Shown here piece after piece: positions 2,494 to 47,800 of a stretch of 64,000 bases of DNA. This DNA is from Escherichia virus TH34. The DNA is taken from sequence record MT446407.1. The stretch is one strand, 5' to 3'. Position 1 is the stretch's first letter. Every line of letters starts with the position of its first letter. The translations under genes and the position numbers were made by a program. The notes beneath the pieces are model-generated. The model saw nothing but the letters and a program-made list of their open reading frames with translations. It did no database searches and was not told where the DNA came from.

Positions 2494-3396
2494 ATGGCTA
2501 AATCTTTCAATCTGGTTAATGAATCCGGTTTTAACGCACTGGCTAACAACATTCGCAGCAATAACGCAGCAATTAAGCAAGATGTTTCTAACTTCCTGTT
2601 AGGTCACTTACAGCACTTCCGTGCTAACGGTAAGAAGTTAGACGTGTTACAGGCGGCGGTAGACTTCCTGTTAACTGAACGTTACCGTGATTTAGATGTG
2701 ATTGCAGTTGCAATTTCTTTCCTAACTCCTGTTAAGTACAACAGCGACGCGGCGAACGGTAAAAAGAAATGGATTAATCTGGAAGGTGAAGCGAAAGCGA
2801 AAGAAGACGCTAAACCTGAACAAGTTAAGGCCAAAATGGAACAAAACCGTGCCCGCTGGTCTAACTCCTTTGAACGCTTTGCGAAAGGCGAAGACGTGCA
2901 GGTTGATAACCCAGCATTTTATAAAGGTTGCAACGACAACGTTCCGGTAGCAAATCAGATTAACCAGAAGGTTAACGAAAACTTTAATCAGGACATTTAC
3001 GCTTTAACTGATCGTTTGGCTGCAATCCGTATTGAAGCGGCACTACTGGCCGATGAACGCAACGGAGCATCTTCTGATAACACTATCGCATTGAGTGAAG
3101 AAGTAGGCAAAGTTAAGAAAACTTTCGATTCACTCCTTAAGAAAGTAACCGCATCAACTGTATCTATCAGCGATGACTACTTGATTAACGCATCTTCAAA
3201 AGAGCTTGAATCTCTGGACTCATACGCTGATGAAATGGAAAAGGCGATCAACGAAATGACCGAAAAATTGTCTAACCTTCGCGGTCGTATCTCAAATGCT
3301 TCAACTGTCAAAGCGAACGAGAAAGCGGCGGCAGACGAGGAAGAAGTATTGCGTAAAGCTGCCGAGATCATGGCAGCACGCCAACAAGCTGCATAA
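2494..3396 (+). CDS. hypothetical early protein (300 aa)
   Basis: First long ORF after the promoter leader; ATG 2494 with AAAGG upstream; no motif recognised. Confidence 0.6.
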   Translation: MAKSFNLVNESGFNALANNIRSNNAAIKQDVSNFLLGHLQHFRANGKKLDVLQAAVDFLLTERYRDLDVIAVAISFLTPVKYNSDAANGKKKWINLEGEAKAKEDAKPEQVKAKMEQNRARWSNSFERFAKGEDVQVDNPAFYKGCNDNVPVANQINQKVNENFNQDIYALTDRLAAIRIEAALLADERNGASSDNTIALSEEVGKVKKTFDSLLKKVTASTVSISDDYLINASSKELESLDSYADEMEKAINEMTEKLSNLRGRISNASTVKANEKAAADEEEVLRKAAEIMAARQQAA

Positions 3397-3417
3397 CCTA
3401 CAATAAAGAACATATAA

Positions 3418-3450
3418 GGCGCTATTCGAAAGGGTAGCGCCTTTTCTTTT
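3418..3450 (+). terminator. rho-independent terminator
   Basis: Stem GGCGCTA (3418-3424) / TAGCGCC (3435-3441) followed by TTTTCTTTT. Confidence 0.55.
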
Positions 3451-3504
3451 ACTAGTGCATTGATTCAGTGTACTAATCAAAGAAACTAAAAAGAGATAAA
3501 CACC

Positions 3505-3729
3505 ATGCCAAAATTGAAAACAGAAGTTAAGATGTATCGTAACGTCATCAACAACATGACCTATCGAAAAACCGATAAATATGGAATCGAGTGTAAGTGC
3601 ATTCTTACCGGTGAATGGTATCCGTCGCCGATTCAAGAACAAGCGTTAATTGAAAACTCTGTTACTTACACTATCACGCAGGAAACTAAGCTAGGCCGAT
3701 TCCTTCGTAAGTTAGGGCTACGCAAATGA
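3505..3729 (+). CDS. hypothetical protein (74 aa)
   Basis: ATG-initiated ORF in compact array; no similarity recognised. Confidence 0.45.
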   Translation: MPKLKTEVKMYRNVINNMTYRKTDKYGIECKCILTGEWYPSPIQEQALIENSVTYTITQETKLGRFLRKLGLRK

Positions 3730-3947
3730 TCTTAACTCAATCCCATTTGTGTCCTATCTGTAAGAAAGCGCGTGCTAATAACAATCATCGCAAGTGTAGC
3801 AGAATCCTACAGCGTCGTCGTAATGATGCCGAGATGGATAAAATGCACAAAAACCAGCATGAGCACGAAAGAAAACAAGCGGCGATCAATGCATCTTCTG
3901 TAATGTATCGTCGTGTAAGATCACTCCAATATAAGGATGCTATCTAA
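3726..3947 (+). CDS. hypothetical basic Cys/His-containing protein (73 aa)
   Basis: ATGA overlap with upstream stop; CPIC...HRKC residues suggest possible metal binding. Confidence 0.45.
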   Translation: MILTQSHLCPICKKARANNNHRKCSRILQRRRNDAEMDKMHKNQHEHERKQAAINASSVMYRRVRSLQYKDAI

Positions 3948-4156
3948 TGACCAGTTTAAGCACGTTAGAGAAGAAAGCTACTCGACTGCTAGGGCGTCGT
4001 GTCCGCTATCACTACCTGAATAAAGGTAAGGCATTAACCGGACGTATTACCACGGTGTCCAGTCGCTGCGGTAAGTTAATATCTGTAAGTGTCCTCTTTG
4101 ATGGCGAACGTGTAGCAATTACACGTAGTTGGAAGTCGTTTAGTTTAATTGATTAA
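3947..4156 (+). CDS. hypothetical protein (69 aa)
   Basis: TAATG start/stop overlap with upstream gene; TAAGGA upstream. Confidence 0.45.
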   Translation: MTSLSTLEKKATRLLGRRVRYHYLNKGKALTGRITTVSSRCGKLISVSVLFDGERVAITRSWKSFSLID

Positions 4157-4226: not shown

Positions 4227-4670
4227 ATGGCTAAATCTAAAATCAGCATGAAAGGCGGGCGTGTGTTCTCGATGAGTGAACTGGAAAAAGATAAGCCAGT
4301 CGCTACTAACCACATTAGCAAACGTAGCCTTAAACGTAGAGCTATCAAACAAACCGCTCAAGAACATAAACCCTCTACCGTAGCAAAGGTGTTAGGTCGT
4401 CGTGTTCATCGTGCTGATGCGCTTCTTAAAGCTGATCATAACCGTTCACTGTTAACCAACGGTGCAGCGAAAACAGAAGAAGAGAAACGTTTAGAAATCT
4501 ATTGCAACGGTCGCACTAAAGGTAAGCAGAAGAATAAAGGTAGCACTAAGCCACCGAAAGCTTTCCCTACTACTAGTCAATGTGCACCGGATGTTTTCTA
4601 CGCTGACAGTCAGCATAAGTGGGGAGTCGAAAAATACATTGACCCCATCAAGGAAGCGAGAGTAAAGTAA
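4227..4670 (+). CDS. hypothetical Lys/Arg-rich basic protein (147 aa)
   Basis: ATG 4227 with AAAGGA upstream; highly basic composition. Confidence 0.5.
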   Translation: MAKSKISMKGGRVFSMSELEKDKPVATNHISKRSLKRRAIKQTAQEHKPSTVAKVLGRRVHRADALLKADHNRSLLTNGAAKTEEEKRLEIYCNGRTKGKQKNKGSTKPPKAFPTTSQCAPDVFYADSQHKWGVEKYIDPIKEARVK

Positions 4671-4728
4671 GCCTCTTCTCTGTACCAGTAGTCAACTACT
4701 ATGACGCTCTTCTTGAGCGTCTTTGTGT
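4671..4728 (+). repeat. conserved post-stop element, copy 1 (GCCTCTTCTCT...CTACTATGACGC + hairpin)
   Basis: Near-identical 11-12-nt blocks shared with 11773-11828; both copies start right after a stop codon and end in a terminator hairpin. Confidence 0.4.
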
Positions 4729-4751
4729 CTGCCGCCTTTGTGCGGCTTTTT
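4703..4751 (+). terminator. tandem rho-independent terminators
   Basis: Hairpin GACGCTC/GAGCGTC (4703-4721) + TTTGTGT; hairpin GCCGC/GCGGC (4731-4746) + TTTTT. Confidence 0.5.
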
Positions 4752-4911
4752 GCGTAGCTAGTGATGCCTAAAGGGCACTCCCTTTGTGAATCATTGGCAT
4801 GGTTCAATCCCTATTGGATGGTCATTTGACCGGGCCTTTAACGAGGCCGCTTTTTTAAGAGTCTTTACGAGGATTCTTAAATGAGTGAGGTCATGTTCAC
4901 TCTTTCAGGTC

Positions 4912-4938
4912 GCCCCGTCTTCGGATGGGGCTTTTTTA
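4912..4938 (+). terminator. rho-independent terminator
   Basis: Stem GCCCC (4912-4916) / GGGGC (4927-4931), then T6. Confidence 0.55.
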
Positions 4939-4989
4939 TGCCCGTAAAACAGGAGGTAGTAAGTTCTGATAACGACAGCCCAGCTACTT

Positions 4990-5376
4990 TTGACATTGAC
5001 TATTTATTATGAGGCAGGGAATCAGCCAACCGCTTGCAAAGCATTAGTAGCGGATACCGTAATAAACAGAATGTCACAACGAAAACTGACTGCCGAGCAG
5101 GTTATAAACCAACGAAACCAGTTCGAGTGGATACCCGTCTTATTAAAGAAGGAGAAACCTTTCAAACGTTATGTAAAGCTAATTCGTGATGATAATCCCC
5201 TGATAAAGAAGTCAATCAGAGAGAGCGAGCGGCTTGCAAGGCGTGCACTGAAGAAAAGTTATGTGCCTTTATACAGTGGTACATACTTTCAGAGTAAGAG
5301 CGAAGGGGTGCCAAAGTGGTATACCAATCCAATGTATTGTGGTGATTTAGTGTTCAATAATAGTGCCCGTGACTGA
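4990..5376 (+). CDS. SleB/CwlJ-like cell-wall hydrolase domain protein (start uncertain)
   Basis: YYEAGNQP...VINRM...NQFEW resembles the EARGE...NR...QF pattern of the cell-wall hydrolase family; track start is TTG; frame is open upstream to 4963 behind a strong AGGAGG. Confidence 0.4.
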   Translation: MTLTIYYEAGNQPTACKALVADTVINRMSQRKLTAEQVINQRNQFEWIPVLLKKEKPFKRYVKLIRDDNPLIKKSIRESERLARRALKKSYVPLYSGTYFQSKSEGVPKWYTNPMYCGDLVFNNSARD

Positions 5377-5577
5377 TTCATAGGTGCCAAGATTGACAAA
5401 CTAAATTTCCTTATAAATCACCTACTTATGATTTTCTCTGCAAAAAGTGGTAGTGATTCGGAACCAGAGGTAATGACTGTATATAGACCTCTGAAAATTA
5501 TTGATAGAAATTAAGTTTAGAAATAATAAATTCTAAATAATATTTCTTATAATATCTTACTTTAAGAGGATAAAGAT

Positions 5578-5883
5578 ATGTCTTTAGAGGTGTATAAGTT
5601 CCTTCTCGTACTCACTGTAACGATTTCTACTCTGGGATTTATTGCTTTAAGTAATAAGTCAGCAAGCTGGAAGCGTCGTTATGAGTTTCTTCTTAAGCAA
5701 GAGGAAGTCTTTAATGCTGATGTTCGTTCCAAGTTGGTCAAGATGCAGGAGCAAATTGAAGCACGTAATGATCGTTTGGCTTCTTTGGGTTGGGAGATTA
5801 AGAGTATTCAAGATCTCAACAAGCAACTCACTGAAGAGATTAAACGCCAGAATGAGGAAACAGAGGATGCGCTCAAAGGTTAA
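5578..5883 (+). CDS. membrane-anchored coiled-coil protein (101 aa)
   Basis: AAGAGGA upstream; N-terminal hydrophobic helix then charged heptad-like region. Confidence 0.5.
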   Translation: MSLEVYKFLLVLTVTISTLGFIALSNKSASWKRRYEFLLKQEEVFNADVRSKLVKMQEQIEARNDRLASLGWEIKSIQDLNKQLTEEIKRQNEETEDALKG

Positions 5884-15723: not shown

Positions 15724-16522
15724 GCGTGCTTTCCTTATTGGTTCTGACCCTGAAATGTTTGTTCGTACTGCTTCTGGTGTTATCACCTCTGTGGCTGGTA
15801 AGCTGGGCTGTTCTAAAGATAACAAAATCGATCTGGCCCCTGATGTTCGTCTTCAAGAAGACAACGTTCTGGCTGAATTTGATATTAACCCACAGAAAGG
15901 GTTCGAAGCGTTTGATGATAACATCCAGCGTGGTATTGATCTGACCAACAAAGTTCTTAATGAACGTGGTATGGAAGCTGCACTTGGGATTAGTTCTCAT
16001 GTGTACACTTCTGAAGAGCTGCAATCATTCCATCCATCAGCCTTTGTGTTTGGCTGTACTCCTGATTTCAACGCCTTCACTGGTCAGAAAAACCCATCTC
16101 CGGTAGCGACAGACAAAGGTCTGCGTACTGCTGGCGGTCACGTACACCTCGGTGTTGCAGGGTCTTTGGAAGTAACTCGACAGACTCAGATGATGCTGGG
16201 TGTTCTCTGTGATTACTTCCTGTCACTTCCAGCAGTAATTATGGATAAGGACACTCGTCGTAAAGAGCTTTACGGCAAGGCATCTGCTATTCGTTATAAA
16301 GATTATGGTATTGAATACCGTTCTCTGTCGAACTTCTGGATTGGTGAACAGTCCACTCGTAAGTTTGTTTACGATCAAGTTGATAAGGTTATTCAGGGCT
16401 GTGATATGGAAATTCTCATGTCTCTGCACTCCCGTCTGCCTATCGAAAAGCTTCACAACATCATCAATAGCAATGATGTTAAAGAAGCGGATAAGTTCTC
16501 CTCTAAACTCCAGATTATCTAA
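15716..16522 (+). CDS. amidoligase-like (glutamine-synthetase-fold COOH-NH2 ligase) protein
   Basis: ATG 15716 with GGAG upstream; acidic IGSDPEMFV segment and GGHVHLG resemble the phage amidoligase family. Confidence 0.45.
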   Translation: MTKRAFLIGSDPEMFVRTASGVITSVAGKLGCSKDNKIDLAPDVRLQEDNVLAEFDINPQKGFEAFDDNIQRGIDLTNKVLNERGMEAALGISSHVYTSEELQSFHPSAFVFGCTPDFNAFTGQKNPSPVATDKGLRTAGGHVHLGVAGSLEVTRQTQMMLGVLCDYFLSLPAVIMDKDTRRKELYGKASAIRYKDYGIEYRSLSNFWIGEQSTRKFVYDQVDKVIQGCDMEILMSLHSRLPIEKLHNIINSNDVKEADKFSSKLQII

Positions 16523-16531
16523 GGTGTTATC

Positions 16532-17158
16532 GTGAGCCTGTTAAGAGATTTTCAGCATTATTATTGCGGAACATGGATTGCCCAACGTGCAGAACGAGGG
16601 ATTAATTTACCTCTTTATGTACTCAACGTGAACCAAGCAAACCGCTTTGGAGAAGATGACTTCTCTCACGAAGCAGAAATGGCCTTAACTTTTGAAGTTG
16701 AACGCTGGTCTAAGAACGCCGAAGGGCAGTTTGAACGACAGGTTGTTCAGGGCATTCCTGTGTTTGATCAAAGCCTTATTCTGGAATCTCCAGATGTGGG
16801 ATACTTACAACACGGCAACAACATGGTAAGCTGGACTCATATCAACCCTGTTCGTCAGCGAGCTAAGGGTCTGATGGGGAACAAATTACGTGGTGCACCT
16901 CCTTCAATGGGTCGTTCGATTCCGGGAGAGCTGGTGTATAATCTGTTTAATCCTGACTTCGAAGGTCTGGTTACTCGCTTCATCTACATCAACCCTGTCG
17001 ATGGTAAAGTTTATTACAAAGGGGCACTTGTAGGTCAAGTTGATCTTTCTGCTGGTTACGGCGACAATGGTCGTCAATCTTTAAATCTTCTGGAGAAGTT
17101 CAAGCATATTTCTTCAGATCTGTCATCATATAATGTAGAGTTGGTGGAAACGTTATGA
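16532..17158 (+). CDS. hypothetical protein (208 aa), amide-ligase cluster
   Basis: GTG 16532 with AAGGTG upstream. Confidence 0.5.
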   Translation: MSLLRDFQHYYCGTWIAQRAERGINLPLYVLNVNQANRFGEDDFSHEAEMALTFEVERWSKNAEGQFERQVVQGIPVFDQSLILESPDVGYLQHGNNMVSWTHINPVRQRAKGLMGNKLRGAPPSMGRSIPGELVYNLFNPDFEGLVTRFIYINPVDGKVYYKGALVGQVDLSAGYGDNGRQSLNLLEKFKHISSDLSSYNVELVETL

Positions 17159-18255: not shown

Positions 18256-18332
18256 CACAATGGGCGCTCTGATAAAGGGCGCATTTAAAGGTTAATTAGA
18301 TGAAAGGGTTTACCCTTCAGGTGGATTAGAAA

Positions 18333-20366
18333 ATTTGTGGTATCGTATTAGCTGGGGGCAACATGACCTCCACAGACTTAGACGTATTCAACCAGCTTCT
18401 GTATGCTGGAGTCTTCCGTGGTCAGCACTCAACTGGTGTGTTCGGTCAGCGTAAAGGTGATGAAAAAGTATTTTCTTATAAAGAAGCACTTCCTTCCTAT
18501 GCCTTCATGCTCCAGACAGGGTACACGAATCTTACTAAGGGGCTTACGAACTATGTAGTTCCTCCATCGTGGATTGTTGGTCATAGCCGACATGCCACAC
18601 GTGGTGCGGTCAATGCTCGAAATGCTCACCCATTCTCTCATGGTGACATTACTCTGGTTCATAATGGTACACTGTTAGATCAGGAACTGTTACCAGATCA
18701 TAAGAATTTCGAAGTTGATAGCGAAAACATCTGTCATTCAATCAACACCATCGGTGCAGCAGAGACTATCCAGAAGTTGGATGGTGCGTTCACTTTAATC
18801 TGGCATGACGCCAAAGACAATACTCTGCATATCATTCGTAACGATGAACGTCCTTTCCATCTGGCCCGTTGTGGTCTAGATTGGTTTGGTGCTTCTGAAG
18901 AAGATATGTTGATGTGGATTCTTAATCGTTCCAAGTCACACAAGAACCGTATCAATGATCACTTTGAGTGTAAAGTGGGAACTGAATACATCTTTGATTT
19001 GTCTGGCAACCGTATGACTCTGACTCAAGAGGTGGAGCACAAGCTTCCGGTTTTTACGGTAACGAGTCGCTGGGGCGGCTATTACTCGAACTCTTCTCTG
19101 TATCAGAACCAACAGACAAACAAATCAAGCAGCAGCACAAGCGACATTTACGGAAACAAAGACGACAAGCCCGGCGTGACAAGCGGAGACATTCGTCGTC
19201 GTAAAGCGATTGAAGATCAGAATAAACTGGCTGCCGATCGTGGTCTTCCGTATCGTCGTGACGGTCGTGTGGATATCATTCCTCATGAGTTCCACGCTTA
19301 TAACAACACTGACCGTGGTAAGATGGTTGGTTATATTTATGATGATGCTGCTCAAGAGTATGTTGAGGGTGATGTTCATAATGTAGCCAAGAGTGAATAC
19401 TTGAAGGCTCTCGAAAACCCAAAGGTAGTGTATCGCGGGACAGTTGCTTGTATCTCCGAAGTGGACAGTATGATTCGCCTCGTACTCACTTCAGGGCTGT
19501 TTGTTGATGCTACCGATAAGGAGCCTCAAAGCACTACCGCTGATTTTGATGATGATATCCCTTTTGATTTAGAAGACTCCTTCATCACTAAGAATGGTGT
19601 GGAAGTCACCCGTAAGTTCTGGGAATCACATTCTCATGGTGATTGTGGCGGTTGTGACAAGCATATTGAATGGAAAGATGCTAAGAAAGCTGTGTTCGCT
19701 TACCAAGCATATTGGCATCCGGCCTGTTTCGAAGCATTGTCCAAACCGTCTGAAGAAGATGAAGACATTCCTTTGGGTGTCTGTGCTGTATGTGGCAATG
19801 TTAAAACTGATTTCGAGTTTGATAACGAAATGAGTAAACTTCGTGGTGAAGATATTTGTTATGTCTGTGCCAAAGAGATCAAAGACAAAGTGACTAACAC
19901 TACATTGTCTGAAGGTTACATTTGGACTAAAGCAGTTGACACAACCAACCCACGTCGCCCTGAAGTAGCAGTTCGTGTTGATCAGCGTATGCTTAGCCGG
20001 ATGATTGTAATGGTCAGCTCAGCTAAACGTTCTGGTGACATTGAATTGTCTGATGTTCCAAATTCTTATTTGGAAAAACGTGGTGGTGATACCTATGCCA
20101 TCTCTGTTTATGGTCCAAAGAATGCCCCAAAGGAGGTGCCCGCTGAGAAAGCGGAAACATTTCCAGAAAAGCAAACAACTCTCCGAAAAACAGTTGTCAG
20201 TTACGACGGACAACGAACAGCTGAGTTCACAAAAGCCCTCTGGACTTCAATTGGGTTTTGTGCGGTCTGTTATAAACAAATTCCGTGGCGTGATGCAGAA
20301 ATTTGCTCACTGAACAAAGAAAACAGGGTGATCTGTAATTCAGATTACTGTAAAGGTAAACATTAA
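18333..20366 (+). CDS. class-II (Ntn-type) glutamine amidotransferase domain fused to Cys-rich zinc-ribbon-like C-terminal region; probable AUU start
   Basis: VGHSRHATRG..NAHPF..LVHNGTLLD matches GlmS/PurF-type GATase motifs; CGIV nucleophile lies 9 codons upstream of first ATG (18363), right after ATT 18333 and behind AGGTGGA; C-terminus has 5+ CxxC pairs. Confidence 0.5.
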   Translation: MCGIVLAGGNMTSTDLDVFNQLLYAGVFRGQHSTGVFGQRKGDEKVFSYKEALPSYAFMLQTGYTNLTKGLTNYVVPPSWIVGHSRHATRGAVNARNAHPFSHGDITLVHNGTLLDQELLPDHKNFEVDSENICHSINTIGAAETIQKLDGAFTLIWHDAKDNTLHIIRNDERPFHLARCGLDWFGASEEDMLMWILNRSKSHKNRINDHFECKVGTEYIFDLSGNRMTLTQEVEHKLPVFTVTSRWGGYYSNSSLYQNQQTNKSSSSTSDIYGNKDDKPGVTSGDIRRRKAIEDQNKLAADRGLPYRRDGRVDIIPHEFHAYNNTDRGKMVGYIYDDAAQEYVEGDVHNVAKSEYLKALENPKVVYRGTVACISEVDSMIRLVLTSGLFVDATDKEPQSTTADFDDDIPFDLEDSFITKNGVEVTRKFWESHSHGDCGGCDKHIEWKDAKKAVFAYQAYWHPACFEALSKPSEEDEDIPLGVCAVCGNVKTDFEFDNEMSKLRGEDICYVCAKEIKDKVTNTTLSEGYIWTKAVDTTNPRRPEVAVRVDQRMLSRMIVMVSSAKRSGDIELSDVPNSYLEKRGGDTYAISVYGPKNAPKEVPAEKAETFPEKQTTLRKTVVSYDGQRTAEFTKALWTSIGFCAVCYKQIPWRDAEICSLNKENRVICNSDYCKGKH

Positions 20367-33503: not shown

Positions 33504-33827
33504 ATGATGACTGATAAGGCAAAACGTGATTATGCACAAGAAAGACGTACCGCAATCAAACGTGGGGAGACAGGTGTTGGTAGCAAGAGCGGAGATGCTC
33601 AGCGCCACCGTGCACGTCGCATCGTTGAAAAGCGCGATGGAAAAGCTGCTGTCCGAGGTAAAGATGTTGGACATAAACGATCAATCAAGTCGGGAGGTTC
33701 TAATGCGTCAAGTAACTTACGTGTTGAATCAGTCTCTGGAAATCGCTCGAACGGCGGCAAAAGTGGAGATCGTGCTGGAAAATCAGCAGGAGGAGTCAAA
33801 TCGAGAAAAGGCGCTCTAAGTCAATGA
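33504..33827 (+). CDS. hypothetical basic Gly/Ser/Arg-rich protein (107 aa)
   Basis: ATG 33504 with AAGGAG upstream; stop ATGA-coupled to next gene. Confidence 0.45.
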   Translation: MMTDKAKRDYAQERRTAIKRGETGVGSKSGDAQRHRARRIVEKRDGKAAVRGKDVGHKRSIKSGGSNASSNLRVESVSGNRSNGGKSGDRAGKSAGGVKSRKGALSQ

Positions 33828-44854: not shown

Positions 44855-47800
44855 TTACTCCTTAGCTCGAACTCTAACACGGAGTTTAGCTTGACGCTTA
44901 CTTCTCTCCAACTTGTCAGACAGAGAACCACGTTTGACTTTCAACTCTCCCTCGTCATTATACTTCTCCAAGAACTGTAAATACTCTTGTCGAGTAGTTG
45001 TCTTGTAAGAAGGAATCTTAACATCAGGATTCTCTTCAATCACACGTCTAATCTTCGCCACATCATCCCGCCCTAAAAGTTTCCCTTTAGCTTGTTCAGC
45101 AGTAGAACCAAAGATTTTCTCCAGTGCTCTAGATTTGTTACCACCCGCTGAAGCAGCACCAAGTTTCGCAATAGCAGAGTAATCATCAGCACTAAACCAA
45201 GCCACTGGATTATCTCCATATTGTTTCTTGTTCTCCGCAGCAGTTTGTAAAGCACGCACAAAGCGACGGTTGTTACCAGCCTTATCAGCACCATGAACTC
45301 TATCTAGAACCTCTGCTACACTAGCCAGTTCCTGCAAGTCTTTACCTTCGATAAAAGCTTTCTCTGCTTTGTTAGCAAAGTCATCTTCCTGCTTCTTAAT
45401 GCTTTCCAGTATATCAGAGGAGGCTTGAGATCTTTCATCTTCCGGCAACGCCGAACGAACTTTCTCCATTTCCAACTCTTCATCCTGAAGTTTCTTCAAC
45501 TCAGAATCTACCTTCCTAGCATCTTCGATAGCTTTCGAAGTATCTGCATCTACCTCTACCTTCCCATCCATATCACCAGTTGCCTTAGCAATATCTTTCT
45601 CGATTGGTGTCATCTTCTCAAAATCCTTAGCAAACTTTGAAATATCCGACTCAATACGAGAACGAGCATTCTGGTGCTCAGTAGGAGTCATAGGTTTCTC
45701 CAGAAGAGAGTAACGGTTATCCATATAAGAACCTGCAAAGATTTCTGCATCTTCTTTAGGAATCCCTTTATCCTCCATAGAACGCATCAGGCGCTTATGA
45801 ATGTCATCACGTTGACGTTGTATTGCCATGCGATCGTTCTCTGCTTCCTGAGCTTCTTTGAGCTTCTTGTCACGTTGTACACGGGAATCAATGTCGTATT
45901 TACGGTTCATCTCTTCCGCCTGTTCGTACATCTTATTCCACTTAGCTTCTCGAGCATCTTCTTCCGCTTCAGTGAGACGACGCTTACGGTCGATGTAATC
46001 ACTTTCTGCGTTGTGGATACGTTCGATAATACTACGGAAACGCTCCGGTGGTACAGGAGAGTTTTTCTCGTGGTGAGCTGCTAACTGTTTCAGTGTACGA
46101 CCTTCCTGAGCCTCACGTACCGACTCTGGTAAATCTTTCAACAGGTTCTCCATCTCCGATTTCTGAGCCGCTATAGCCTCGAGAGACTGTCTTTCTGTCT
46201 CTACTGCTGCCTTGGCATCACTACGAGCTTTAGCCCTGTTACGGAGCGTCTCAAGACGTTCTTGACGTGCTTGCAAATGTTTAGCTGCTGCTTCGTACTG
46301 AGAGTTCTTATTAGCTTTGTTGAACATGTTAACTTCACGGTTATATGTGTTAATGAAGCCATCCCATATATCCTTCATCTGTCCCACTTCCAAAGCATCT
46401 TCCCTTCCAGCCTTCTCTGAAGCTTTAAACTTCCCATCTACAAAGTCTTCCATCAACTTACGCATAGCATCTTTTTGAGCTGGACGTAATGGCTCTGCAT
46501 CAAGAAGTAGATTGATTTCGCTGTGTAACTCTTTCTTCTGGTCAACCAGCTTAGGAGCATCAGCTTTATCAAGCTTTTTATTCTCTGCAAGAGCTTCTTC
46601 ATACATCCTATTAAACTCATCATCACGTTGTTTCTGATACAGACGTTCAGACCTACGCTTCAGTGAATCTAGACTAGTCACGTTTCCTCCAATACCTTTC
46701 TCCTCAGCACGTAATGCCTTGGTAGCAATATCAGAAGGTAGACCACGTTCCTTAACCCAATCAGCAAACGAAGAACGAACACGTTGTGACTTAGCAGCAG
46801 CAATACCCTGTTGAGAAGCAAGCTGGTTACGAGCCATCTCAGCATGGCGTTCAGCATTGTTAGCTTGGTCTTCCTGACGGATACGACGCATCAACTCTTT
46901 CGGGTCGCCTTTATAAGAAAGGAAGTTCTCAGCTGTGGCTTTAGCCTTAGCACCTGCCGTATACAGAGAACGAGCAAAGCGATCTGCACGATCTTTAGTA
47001 GCTTGACGGGCAGCACTTGACATAGCAGCCAGACGCTCTATTCCAGTAGCTGGTTTAACAGGCTCAGGCTCAATCTCAGGAGCTTTAGGAGCACGGGTAG
47101 GTAATGGCTCAGCTTGAACTGTAGGCTCCTCAGGAACGCTCTCAGCAGCCTTGCTAGCCTCTTCTGCTTCTTGACGTTTACGAGCTTCTGCAACAGCACG
47201 ACGTTGGGCAACTAAATCCCTTGCGGTAGTAACTGGTTCTTGTGGAACTGGCTCTGGAGTTGGTTCTTCCTGAACCCTGTTAGCTTCGGCTTCTTGACGT
47301 CTAGCTTCAGCTTCCTTCAAAGCACGTCTCTGTGCGACCAAATCACGAGCAGTTAAAGGAGAGGTTTCTGGAGAGGAAATTTCTTCCGTCACAGTAGTAG
47401 CAGAAGGCTCCCGAACCGGTTCGATTTCCGTGTCATTTTGAGTCTTAAATTTAATGTCATCAACTTCAGGTTCTTTCTCCATCGCAGCACGGGCTTCATC
47501 AGCCTGAGCACGAGCACGAGTTACTTCCATATCACTACGAGCAAGAGAACGAATAGCTTCACTGTTAGCAGCCTGCTGGCTTTCGCGTTGAGAGCGAGCA
47601 CGGTCAGAACGGAAACGGTTAAGAACATGCTTAGCAGCACCAAGAGGATTCTTAATCAGAACTGGAGGAGCAGCTTCTTTAAAACCATCAGCAGTCAGAG
47701 AAGTCCAACCACGGTCTTGATTACTCATTAACTTAGCTGTATTATTCAGAGTGAAAGCATCTTGGATTGGGTTGAAACCTTCAGGCATTCCTTTAAGTTT

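Follow-up and report, generated by a model that had tools for sequence, protein, structure and literature searches.

The 64,000 nt stretch of DNA analysed here (the window), from Escherichia virus TH34 (record MT446407.1), carries near positions 4,912-5,376 a gene for a SleB-type cell-wall hydrolase in which a strong Shine-Dalgarno (SD) sequence is followed by no canonical start codon until position 4990. Comparison with its relatives suggests that this gene probably encodes a 136-residue protein whose translation is initiated, at low output, at a CUG codon (4966-4968; + strand, as for all further features of this locus), and which is the Suseptimavirus orthologue of phiEco32 gp117 and Paul gp123. 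Initiation at the CUG itself, and likewise the low expression, the enzymatic activity and the access to the cell wall, are what we infer. The domain family, the deposited and mostly mis-started orthologues, and near-cognate initiation as a phenomenon are already known. What appears to be new is a homology-anchored case for a CUG start across the sampled E. coli phages of the subfamily, a putative ATG-TTG-CTG series at the start site, and an apparent AUU-start gene in the same genome.

The initial annotation had noticed that AGGAGG is followed by no canonical start before TTG 4990, and the sequence bears this out to the base. The SD sequence AGGAGGT occupies 4951-4957 (AGGAGG at 4951-4956, T at 4957). 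Two in-frame stop codons, TAG (4957-4959) and TAA (4960-4962), close the frame upstream and lie inside the spacer between SD and start. They are followed by GTT (4963) and by CTG, the proposed initiation codon, which begins 9 nt past AGGAGG. The next codon, ATA (4969-4971), is an alternative near-cognate start 12 nt past the SD. ATG, GTG and TTG are absent in frame between the upstream stops and TTG 4990-4992, so that the reading frame opens as TAG TAA GTT CTG with no canonical start before the CTG. The eight codons from 4966 to 4989 would form an N-terminal extension (L/fM-I-T-T-A-Q-L-L), which most annotations omit. An internal ATG, Met36 of the long protein, follows at 5071-5073. From the CTG onward the frame is open throughout, the full proposed coding sequence (4966-5376) comprising 136 codons and a TGA at 5374-5376.

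The SD stands at a functional spacing before CTG, and none is found before TTG 4990. The calculated duplex with the 3' end of 16S rRNA has an energy of -11.6 kcal/mol, irrespective of whether CTG or ATA is taken as the start. The corresponding values are +0.4 kcal/mol for TTG 4990, +0.7 for TTG 4996, -3.3 for the internal ATG 5071 and -1.7 for the ATG found at codon 8 in Kuravirus. A duplex of -9 kcal/mol or lower precedes only about 13% of the window's open reading frames (ORFs) of at least 80 codons when these are begun at their first ATG. Of the window's 174 ORFs that measure 80 codons or more from stop to stop, it is the hydrolase ORF that has the strongest SD located 4-12 nt before a near-cognate codon preceding the first canonical start.

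The window represents a phiEco32-like, Suseptimavirus-like podophage of the subfamily Gordonclarkvirinae, in reversed orientation relative to most deposited genomes. Its region 4600-5600 matches 98 phage records, with TH43 (98%), ECBP2 (97%) and Bas88 as the best matches. For comparison within E. coli phages we fetched 31 full-length copies of the gene (26 distinct sequences) from Kuravirus, Suseptimavirus and Nieuwekanaalvirus. A family profile search yielded 39 homologues, 29 sequences of which make up the family alignment (A3), and pattern scans of metagenomes and IMG/VR added 12 loci; the comparative power comes mainly from GenBank phage records and Logan contigs.

The homologues at 42-70% identity are 132-136 residues long and begin with ML(T/S)TAALLLTLT(I/V)YHEAGNQ. 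In the alignment, CTG 4966 falls exactly on their first residue and ATA 4969 on their second. In the DNA of these relatives, the codon at the CTG position is ATG in one group (L088/089, L116, L119, L121, L124) and TTG in another (L084-087, L122, L117), and it always lies 3-9 nt after (A)AGGAGG. CTG 4966 is thus orthologous to the canonical starts of the homologues, which at the aligned position have ATG in five contigs and TTG in four. The earlier proposal of a start at CTG or ATA is thereby supported, as it is by the coding-type evolution of the extension described below, and CTG is the homologous position.

Across the family, distant relatives start with ATG, the closest ones with TTG and all sampled E. 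coli phages of the subfamily with CTG. The lineages nearest to the E. coli phages, at 65-70% identity, have TTG in all three cases for which the DNA was read. Because these closest relatives use TTG, the distribution suggests an ATG to TTG to CTG series at one orthologous site, in which the start would have been weakened stepwise; the step from TTG to CTG is a single T-to-C transition. TTG starts are recurrent in the hydrolase family. In two of the Logan contigs, L117 (1474-1860) and L116 (1393-1797), the gene caller had picked a downstream ATG and truncated the N-terminus. In L117 the true start is a TTG that follows AAGGAGG at 9 nt, so that the protein begins (M)AYIFLLLS; in L116 it is an upstream ATG.

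All 31 E. coli-phage copies read GGT AG(T/C) AAG TT CTG ATA AC behind AGGAGG or AGGGGG, and in every one the 136-codon frame runs uninterrupted from CTG to its stop. CTG 4966 and ATA 4969 are invariant in the 26 distinct sequences. In kuraviruses the spacer contains TAG CAA or TAT CAA, and another in-frame TAA lies further upstream. Four unrelated sequences abut the SD on its upstream side, namely the terminator-like hairpin of the window and the contexts found in phiEco32, in L091 and in Bas92/94; all are joined to it within a few bases. Since the upstream contexts are unrelated and the sequence is constant from the SD onward, the conserved module begins at the SD.

Between CTG and TTG 4990 the sequence evolves under coding constraint. 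Among the E. coli-phage sequences, variable sites in the extension are distributed over the three codon positions as 1/0/5, compared with 22/11/70 in the rest of the gene. Five of the six are therefore third positions (P = 0.018 for at least five of six), and for the eight codons coding-type rates are favoured over the best uniform rate by a likelihood ratio of 74. The synonymous columns are ACG/ACA, ACA/ACG, GCC/GCA and CTA/CTG, and there is one Leu-to-Met change (CTT/ATG). Only 1 of the 16 first and second positions varies and there are no indels, as against 37% variable columns plus indels in the downstream intergenic DNA. The SD and spacer contain three variable sites without such periodicity. 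For the gene as a whole, pN/pS is about 0.1 at a pS of about 0.55 between genera (26 distinct sequences, three genera), and judged by this substitution pattern it is functional and under purifying selection.

Several observations weigh against initiation at CTG. A spacing of 9 nt is at the upper end of the range for this phage, whose GGAGG-to-ATG spacings are mostly 4-7 nt. The third-position test rests on just six variable sites, and the invariance of CTG is not significant because about 45% of the gene's third positions are also invariant. Further, the main-clade kuraviruses have acquired an ATG at codon 8, which is possibly a replacement start, and SD-less initiation at UUG or AUG could match the yield of a CUG with an SD. 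The literature searched holds no proteomics, ribosome profiling or reporter data on the hydrolase gene, and no paper on its start codon or function.

To the reading with the best prospects after CUG initiation we give a modest chance. Here translation would start at UUG 4990, or at the codon-8 AUG in the main-clade kuraviruses, giving 128 or 129 residues; the CTG would be a relic and the SD would recruit ribosomes nearby, or both isoforms would be made. Indeed, comparable yields without an SD would make a mixture of isoforms possible. No canonical start precedes TTG 4990 in the frame, either this codon or the Kuravirus ATG is used in several GenBank records, and the short form retains the conserved Glu16. 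The codon-8 ATG is derived, occurs in a single clade and may be compensatory. However, neither start has an SD, as the duplex energies above show, and both are 30-33 nt from AGGAGG. TTG 4990 is codon 9, the conserved Leu of the LLLTLT motif; its equivalent is an internal Leu codon in the relatives that start upstream, and the most distant relative has CTG there. The eight upstream codons are of coding type also within the clade that has the codon-8 ATG, where both variable sites are third positions (2/2, a comparison of low power). On the protein side, the short form would lose about five residues of a helix that spans residues 4-17 in the structure model described below, and it differs from the family members outside E. 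coli phages, all of which have at least 14 residues before the conserved Glu.

Initiation at AUA 4969 by the same mechanism, giving a protein one residue shorter, is unlikely. AUA belongs to the same efficiency class as CUG, is in frame and invariant, and is served by the same SD; yet its distance from the SD is 12 nt, and it aligns with codon 2 (Leu/Ile) of all relatives rather than with their start. The expected N-terminal tryptic peptides differ between the starts: (M)ITTAQLLLTLTIYYEAGNQPTACK for CUG, (M)TLTIYYEAGNQPTACK for UUG 4990 and a peptide beginning MTTAQ for AUA.

We regard it as very unlikely that the gene is hardly translated at all, be it as a start-less remnant in the early region or through a sequencing artefact. 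Such a reading would agree with the lack of a canonical start at the ribosome-binding site, with the terminators upstream and with the failure to find a promoter. It conflicts with the low pN/pS and with a frame open in 31/31 copies, all of which keep SD, spacer and CTG. Moreover, the arrangement is identical in dozens of independently sequenced genomes, which excludes a sequencing error.

Least credible of all is that the gene is translated by termination-reinitiation from a small ORF beginning at ATG 4881 instead of by de novo initiation: an annotated 29-codon ORF in ECBP2/Bas88-type genomes does end at the TGA within CTGA, but in the window and in kuraviruses the ATG 4881 ORF uses a different frame and extends to 5012, it spans a terminator hairpin, and the upstream sequence is wholly replaced in phiEco32, L091 and Bas92/94 while SD and CTG persist. 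This ORF (4881-5012; 1782-1871 in L003, 336-467 in L102) overlaps the hydrolase start and corresponds to gp118 as annotated in phiEco32. An indel of one base ahead of the SD shifts its frame relative to the hydrolase from genome to genome, and the ORF is probably not a gene.

The assignment of the product to the SleB-type hydrolases, made initially from the sequence alone, holds at the level of family profile, fold and motif. Pfam PF07486 (Hydrolase_2) matches residues 21-122 with 31.5 bits (gathering threshold 27, E = 2.9e-7; profile positions 2-85 of 100), and precomputed PF07486 matches are on record for most homologues. The protein consists of a single domain, as none besides Hydrolase_2 is found in Pfam. 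In PHROGs the protein belongs to phrog_12974, whose function is unassigned and whose profile begins at residue 8, the Met of Kuravirus codon 8; a weak endolysin match is found besides. Five residues are invariant in the 29 aligned sequences: Y14, E16, A29, N34 and R35. The general motif is YxEA(R/G)(G/N)(E/Q)P, with an invariant Y-x-E-A-G/R core; in close family members it appears as the classical SleB motif, YHEARGEP. Its invariant Glu is Glu16 counted from CTG (GAG, 5011-5013), presumably the catalytic residue; by motif similarity we take it to be the equivalent of the catalytic Glu of SleB.

A sequence search of the PDB with the family profile returned no SleB chain, and the link to SleB therefore needed a fold comparison. 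An AlphaFold2 model built on the family alignment (pLDDT 91.9, pTM 0.87) matched 4FET_A, 4F55 and 4FET_B in Foldseek at probability 1.0 (TM 0.57-0.64), with all other hits at or below 0.09. Helix 4-17 of the model takes in the extension (residues 4-8) and leads to Glu16, and residues 1-10 have a mean pLDDT of 92; as modelled, the extension is thus part of the fold.

The SleB catalytic domains of B. anthracis and B. cereus (4FET, 4F55) have the fold and the motif with the invariant Glu in common with the phage protein, at only 16-17% sequence identity. SleB belongs to a spore germination system, whereas the phage protein, with its predicted activity, comes from a phage with a Gram-negative host. 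It has neither a signal peptide nor an N-terminal peptidoglycan-binding domain, which characterise SleB proper, and it is hence a SleB-domain protein, not a SleB orthologue. It is presumably a lytic transglycosylase.

Its closest described counterparts are phiEco32 gp117 (phi32_117), Paul gp123 ("cell wall hydrolase") and Ptacy1532 ("hydrolase"), orthologues at about 84-87% identity that fall into PHROG 12974. They sit at the equivalent place of the early region, and their DNA shows the same SD-CTG-ATA arrangement, but they are annotated from a downstream ATG (129 residues) at a point where the window has CTT. Data on the function or expression of these three orthologues were not found in the literature.

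Endolysins of the signal-anchor-release (SAR) type, such as P1 Lyz and phage 21 R, carry a weakly hydrophobic N-terminal segment of transmembrane length (about 18 residues or more, with much Gly, Ala and Ser), which is able to enter the membrane and to come out of it again. Like these, the hydrolase has a hydrophobic N-terminal segment directly before the catalytic Glu (presumed in the hydrolase). We nevertheless reject SAR-type export, as the segment, with its 13-15 residues, is too short and not hydrophobic enough; its N-terminus is also uncharged. Hydropathy predicts no signal or transmembrane segment (the maximum of the 19-residue Kyte-Doolittle mean is 0.71). Unlike in SAR endolysins, the segment is modelled as a helix of a globular domain (residues 4-17, pLDDT 92), and the gene is early and not adjacent to a holin gene.

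The hydrolase lies at the end of the genome that corresponds to the early, sigma70-transcribed region, while holin and endolysin belong to the late structural module (PMC4281155, PMC9965538). The placement in the early region, far from the endolysin, had been called unusual from the start; the placement itself is confirmed by these papers, and its unusualness is a matter of degree, since a PF07486 protein alongside a typical endolysin has been reported in other coliphages too. Besides the late holin and endolysin, the phage family encodes a virion transglycosylase resembling T7 internal virion protein D, and spanins (3217-3999 and 16215-16710 in phage Paul, L125). With a late endolysin and a virion transglycosylase already in the phage, the SleB-like early protein would be a third muralytic gene.

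The sequence between a 147-residue ORF (4227-4670) and the hydrolase gene contains four terminator-like hairpins with T-runs in 235 nt (4703-4937), at 4703-4721, 4731-4746, 4833-4848 and 4912-4931. The last of these (GCCCCGTCTTCGGATGGGGC) resembles an intrinsic terminator; including its T-run it occupies 4912-4937 and ends 13 nt upstream of the SD. Between 4100 and 5700 there are 6 terminator-like sites versus 1.3 expected. The hairpins might mark the ends of small RNAs, or together form a graded attenuator. On the + strand between 4670 and 4966 we found neither a sigma70-like site nor a tAATGTAtA motif of the phi32 gp36 type that would indicate a promoter of its own. A search of 4500-5700 against Rfam gave only sub-threshold matches, the best being anti-hemB with 20.3 bits versus a threshold of 49.5 (E = 0.05). 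A hairpin sequestering the SD was also considered: the minimum free energy fold of 4905-5020 pairs GGAGGUAG with CUACUUUU (codons 7-9) at a z-score of -0.98, and we rejected it as a conserved element, the pairing being broken in kuraviruses, which have CTAATG there. Downstream of the hydrolase, an ORF of 101 residues (5578-5883) is labelled "DNA helicase" in several Pharokka-annotated relatives. Its N-terminal stretch is hydrophobic, a long charged region with abundant Glu, Lys and Gln comes next, and the whole is much too small to be a helicase; the label is probably wrong.

Expression from CUG would most likely proceed as follows. A transcript from upstream early promoters would read through the four terminator-like hairpins (4703-4931), a 30S subunit would bind AGGAGGU, and initiator tRNA would pair with the CUG 9 nt downstream, which would be read as fMet. 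In E. coli reporters, CUG, AUA, AUC and AUU yield 1-2% of what AUG gives; with other constructs the range is 0.02-3% (bioRxiv 10.1101/063800). A near-cognate CUG, together with a position behind hairpins and without a recognisable promoter, would accordingly be expected to give a trace output. Such low output may plausibly have been selected, the protein being potentially able to damage the cell wall, and the recurrent TTG starts in the family fit this reading. As to how a protein without a signal peptide would reach the wall, the simplest guess is that it passes at lysis through the lesions made by holin, in the manner of ordinary endolysins. A phage-encoded tRNA that reads CUG as a start was ruled out as an explanation, as the window encodes only tRNA-Arg(TCT).

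A precedent for near-cognate starts is infC of E. coli, whose AUU start is under the control of IF3 and limits expression. In starts of this type, as in the hydrolase, a strong SD is followed by a codon one position off AUG. The hydrolase differs in that its codon is CUG, the rarest NUG start, that it is part of no known regulatory loop, and that the case for it is comparative.

The same genome contains a second gene of this kind. The glutamine amidotransferase (GATase) frame at 18327-20351 (+), for which an AUU start had been proposed, does open with TAG AAA ATT(18333) TGT GGT ATC GTA, corresponding to I-C-G-I-V. An AGGTGG lies 8 nt upstream of ATT 18333, and the first ATG (18363) follows only ten codons later. 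Class-II (Ntn) amidotransferases need a Cys directly after the initiator Met, and ATT 18333 is therefore the sole start that would give a functional N-terminus. In the protein begun at ATT, the Pfam match to GATase_6 covers residues 76-174. Phage Paul likewise has ATT TGT GG(T/C) ATC GTA; the annotated start of its orthologue (gp087, which corresponds to the "glutamine amidotransferase" of phiEco32) is over 100 codons past the ATT, within the GATase_6 domain. Both the amidotransferase and the hydrolase are conserved genes with a homology-defined N-terminus at a near-cognate codon; they differ in that the amidotransferase uses AUU, has a weaker SD and encodes an unrelated protein.

Taken with the CUG of the hydrolase, this would make at least two conserved near-cognate-start genes in the phage. 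The earlier suggestion that the phage tolerates or exploits non-AUG initiation is thus upheld within the reach of sequence analysis. Two further candidates did not withstand inspection. ATC 33800, ranked second to the hydrolase in the comparison of the window's ORFs, is preceded by AGGAGG (33788-33827, +) and is in frame with an HNH-like ORF; it lies, however, inside an upstream gene (33504-33827), and the HNH-like ORF has its own ATG (33824), which overlaps the stop of that gene in an ATGA coupling. At 45776, a GGAGG falls within a long ORF. Whether the CUG and AUU starts are kept deliberately, as translational throttles sensitive to initiation fidelity whose output would follow the state of the host initiation machinery during infection, is a more speculative matter; we consider it possible, if somewhat doubtful.

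In GenBank, the hydrolase gene is started at four different places. The CTG start (136 residues) is used in the BASEL records Bas88 and Bas89, without comment in the accompanying paper. The codon-8 ATG (129 residues) is used for phiEco32 gp117, Paul gp123, Ptacy1532, MN05 and Bas92/94, and TTG 4990 (128 residues) for HC-25922, E20-1, PAS59 and 4E8. The internal ATG, with a product of 101 residues, is used in SU7, myPSH1131, EP335, IME267, EK010, UKE3 and ES17, and a start there would delete Glu16 and the invariant N34-R35. The N-terminus defined by homology corrects the protein for about 100 genomes, and the amidotransferase needs the same correction.

If the CUG is used, the gene would be a case of conserved natural near-cognate initiation in an E. 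coli phage, and its product a muralytic protein held to trace amounts by terminators and a weak start codon. Should the throttle interpretation be true, the hydrolase would offer a legible evolutionary series of start codons, and its CUG would belong to the small number of such initiation codons that are naturally conserved in an E. coli system.

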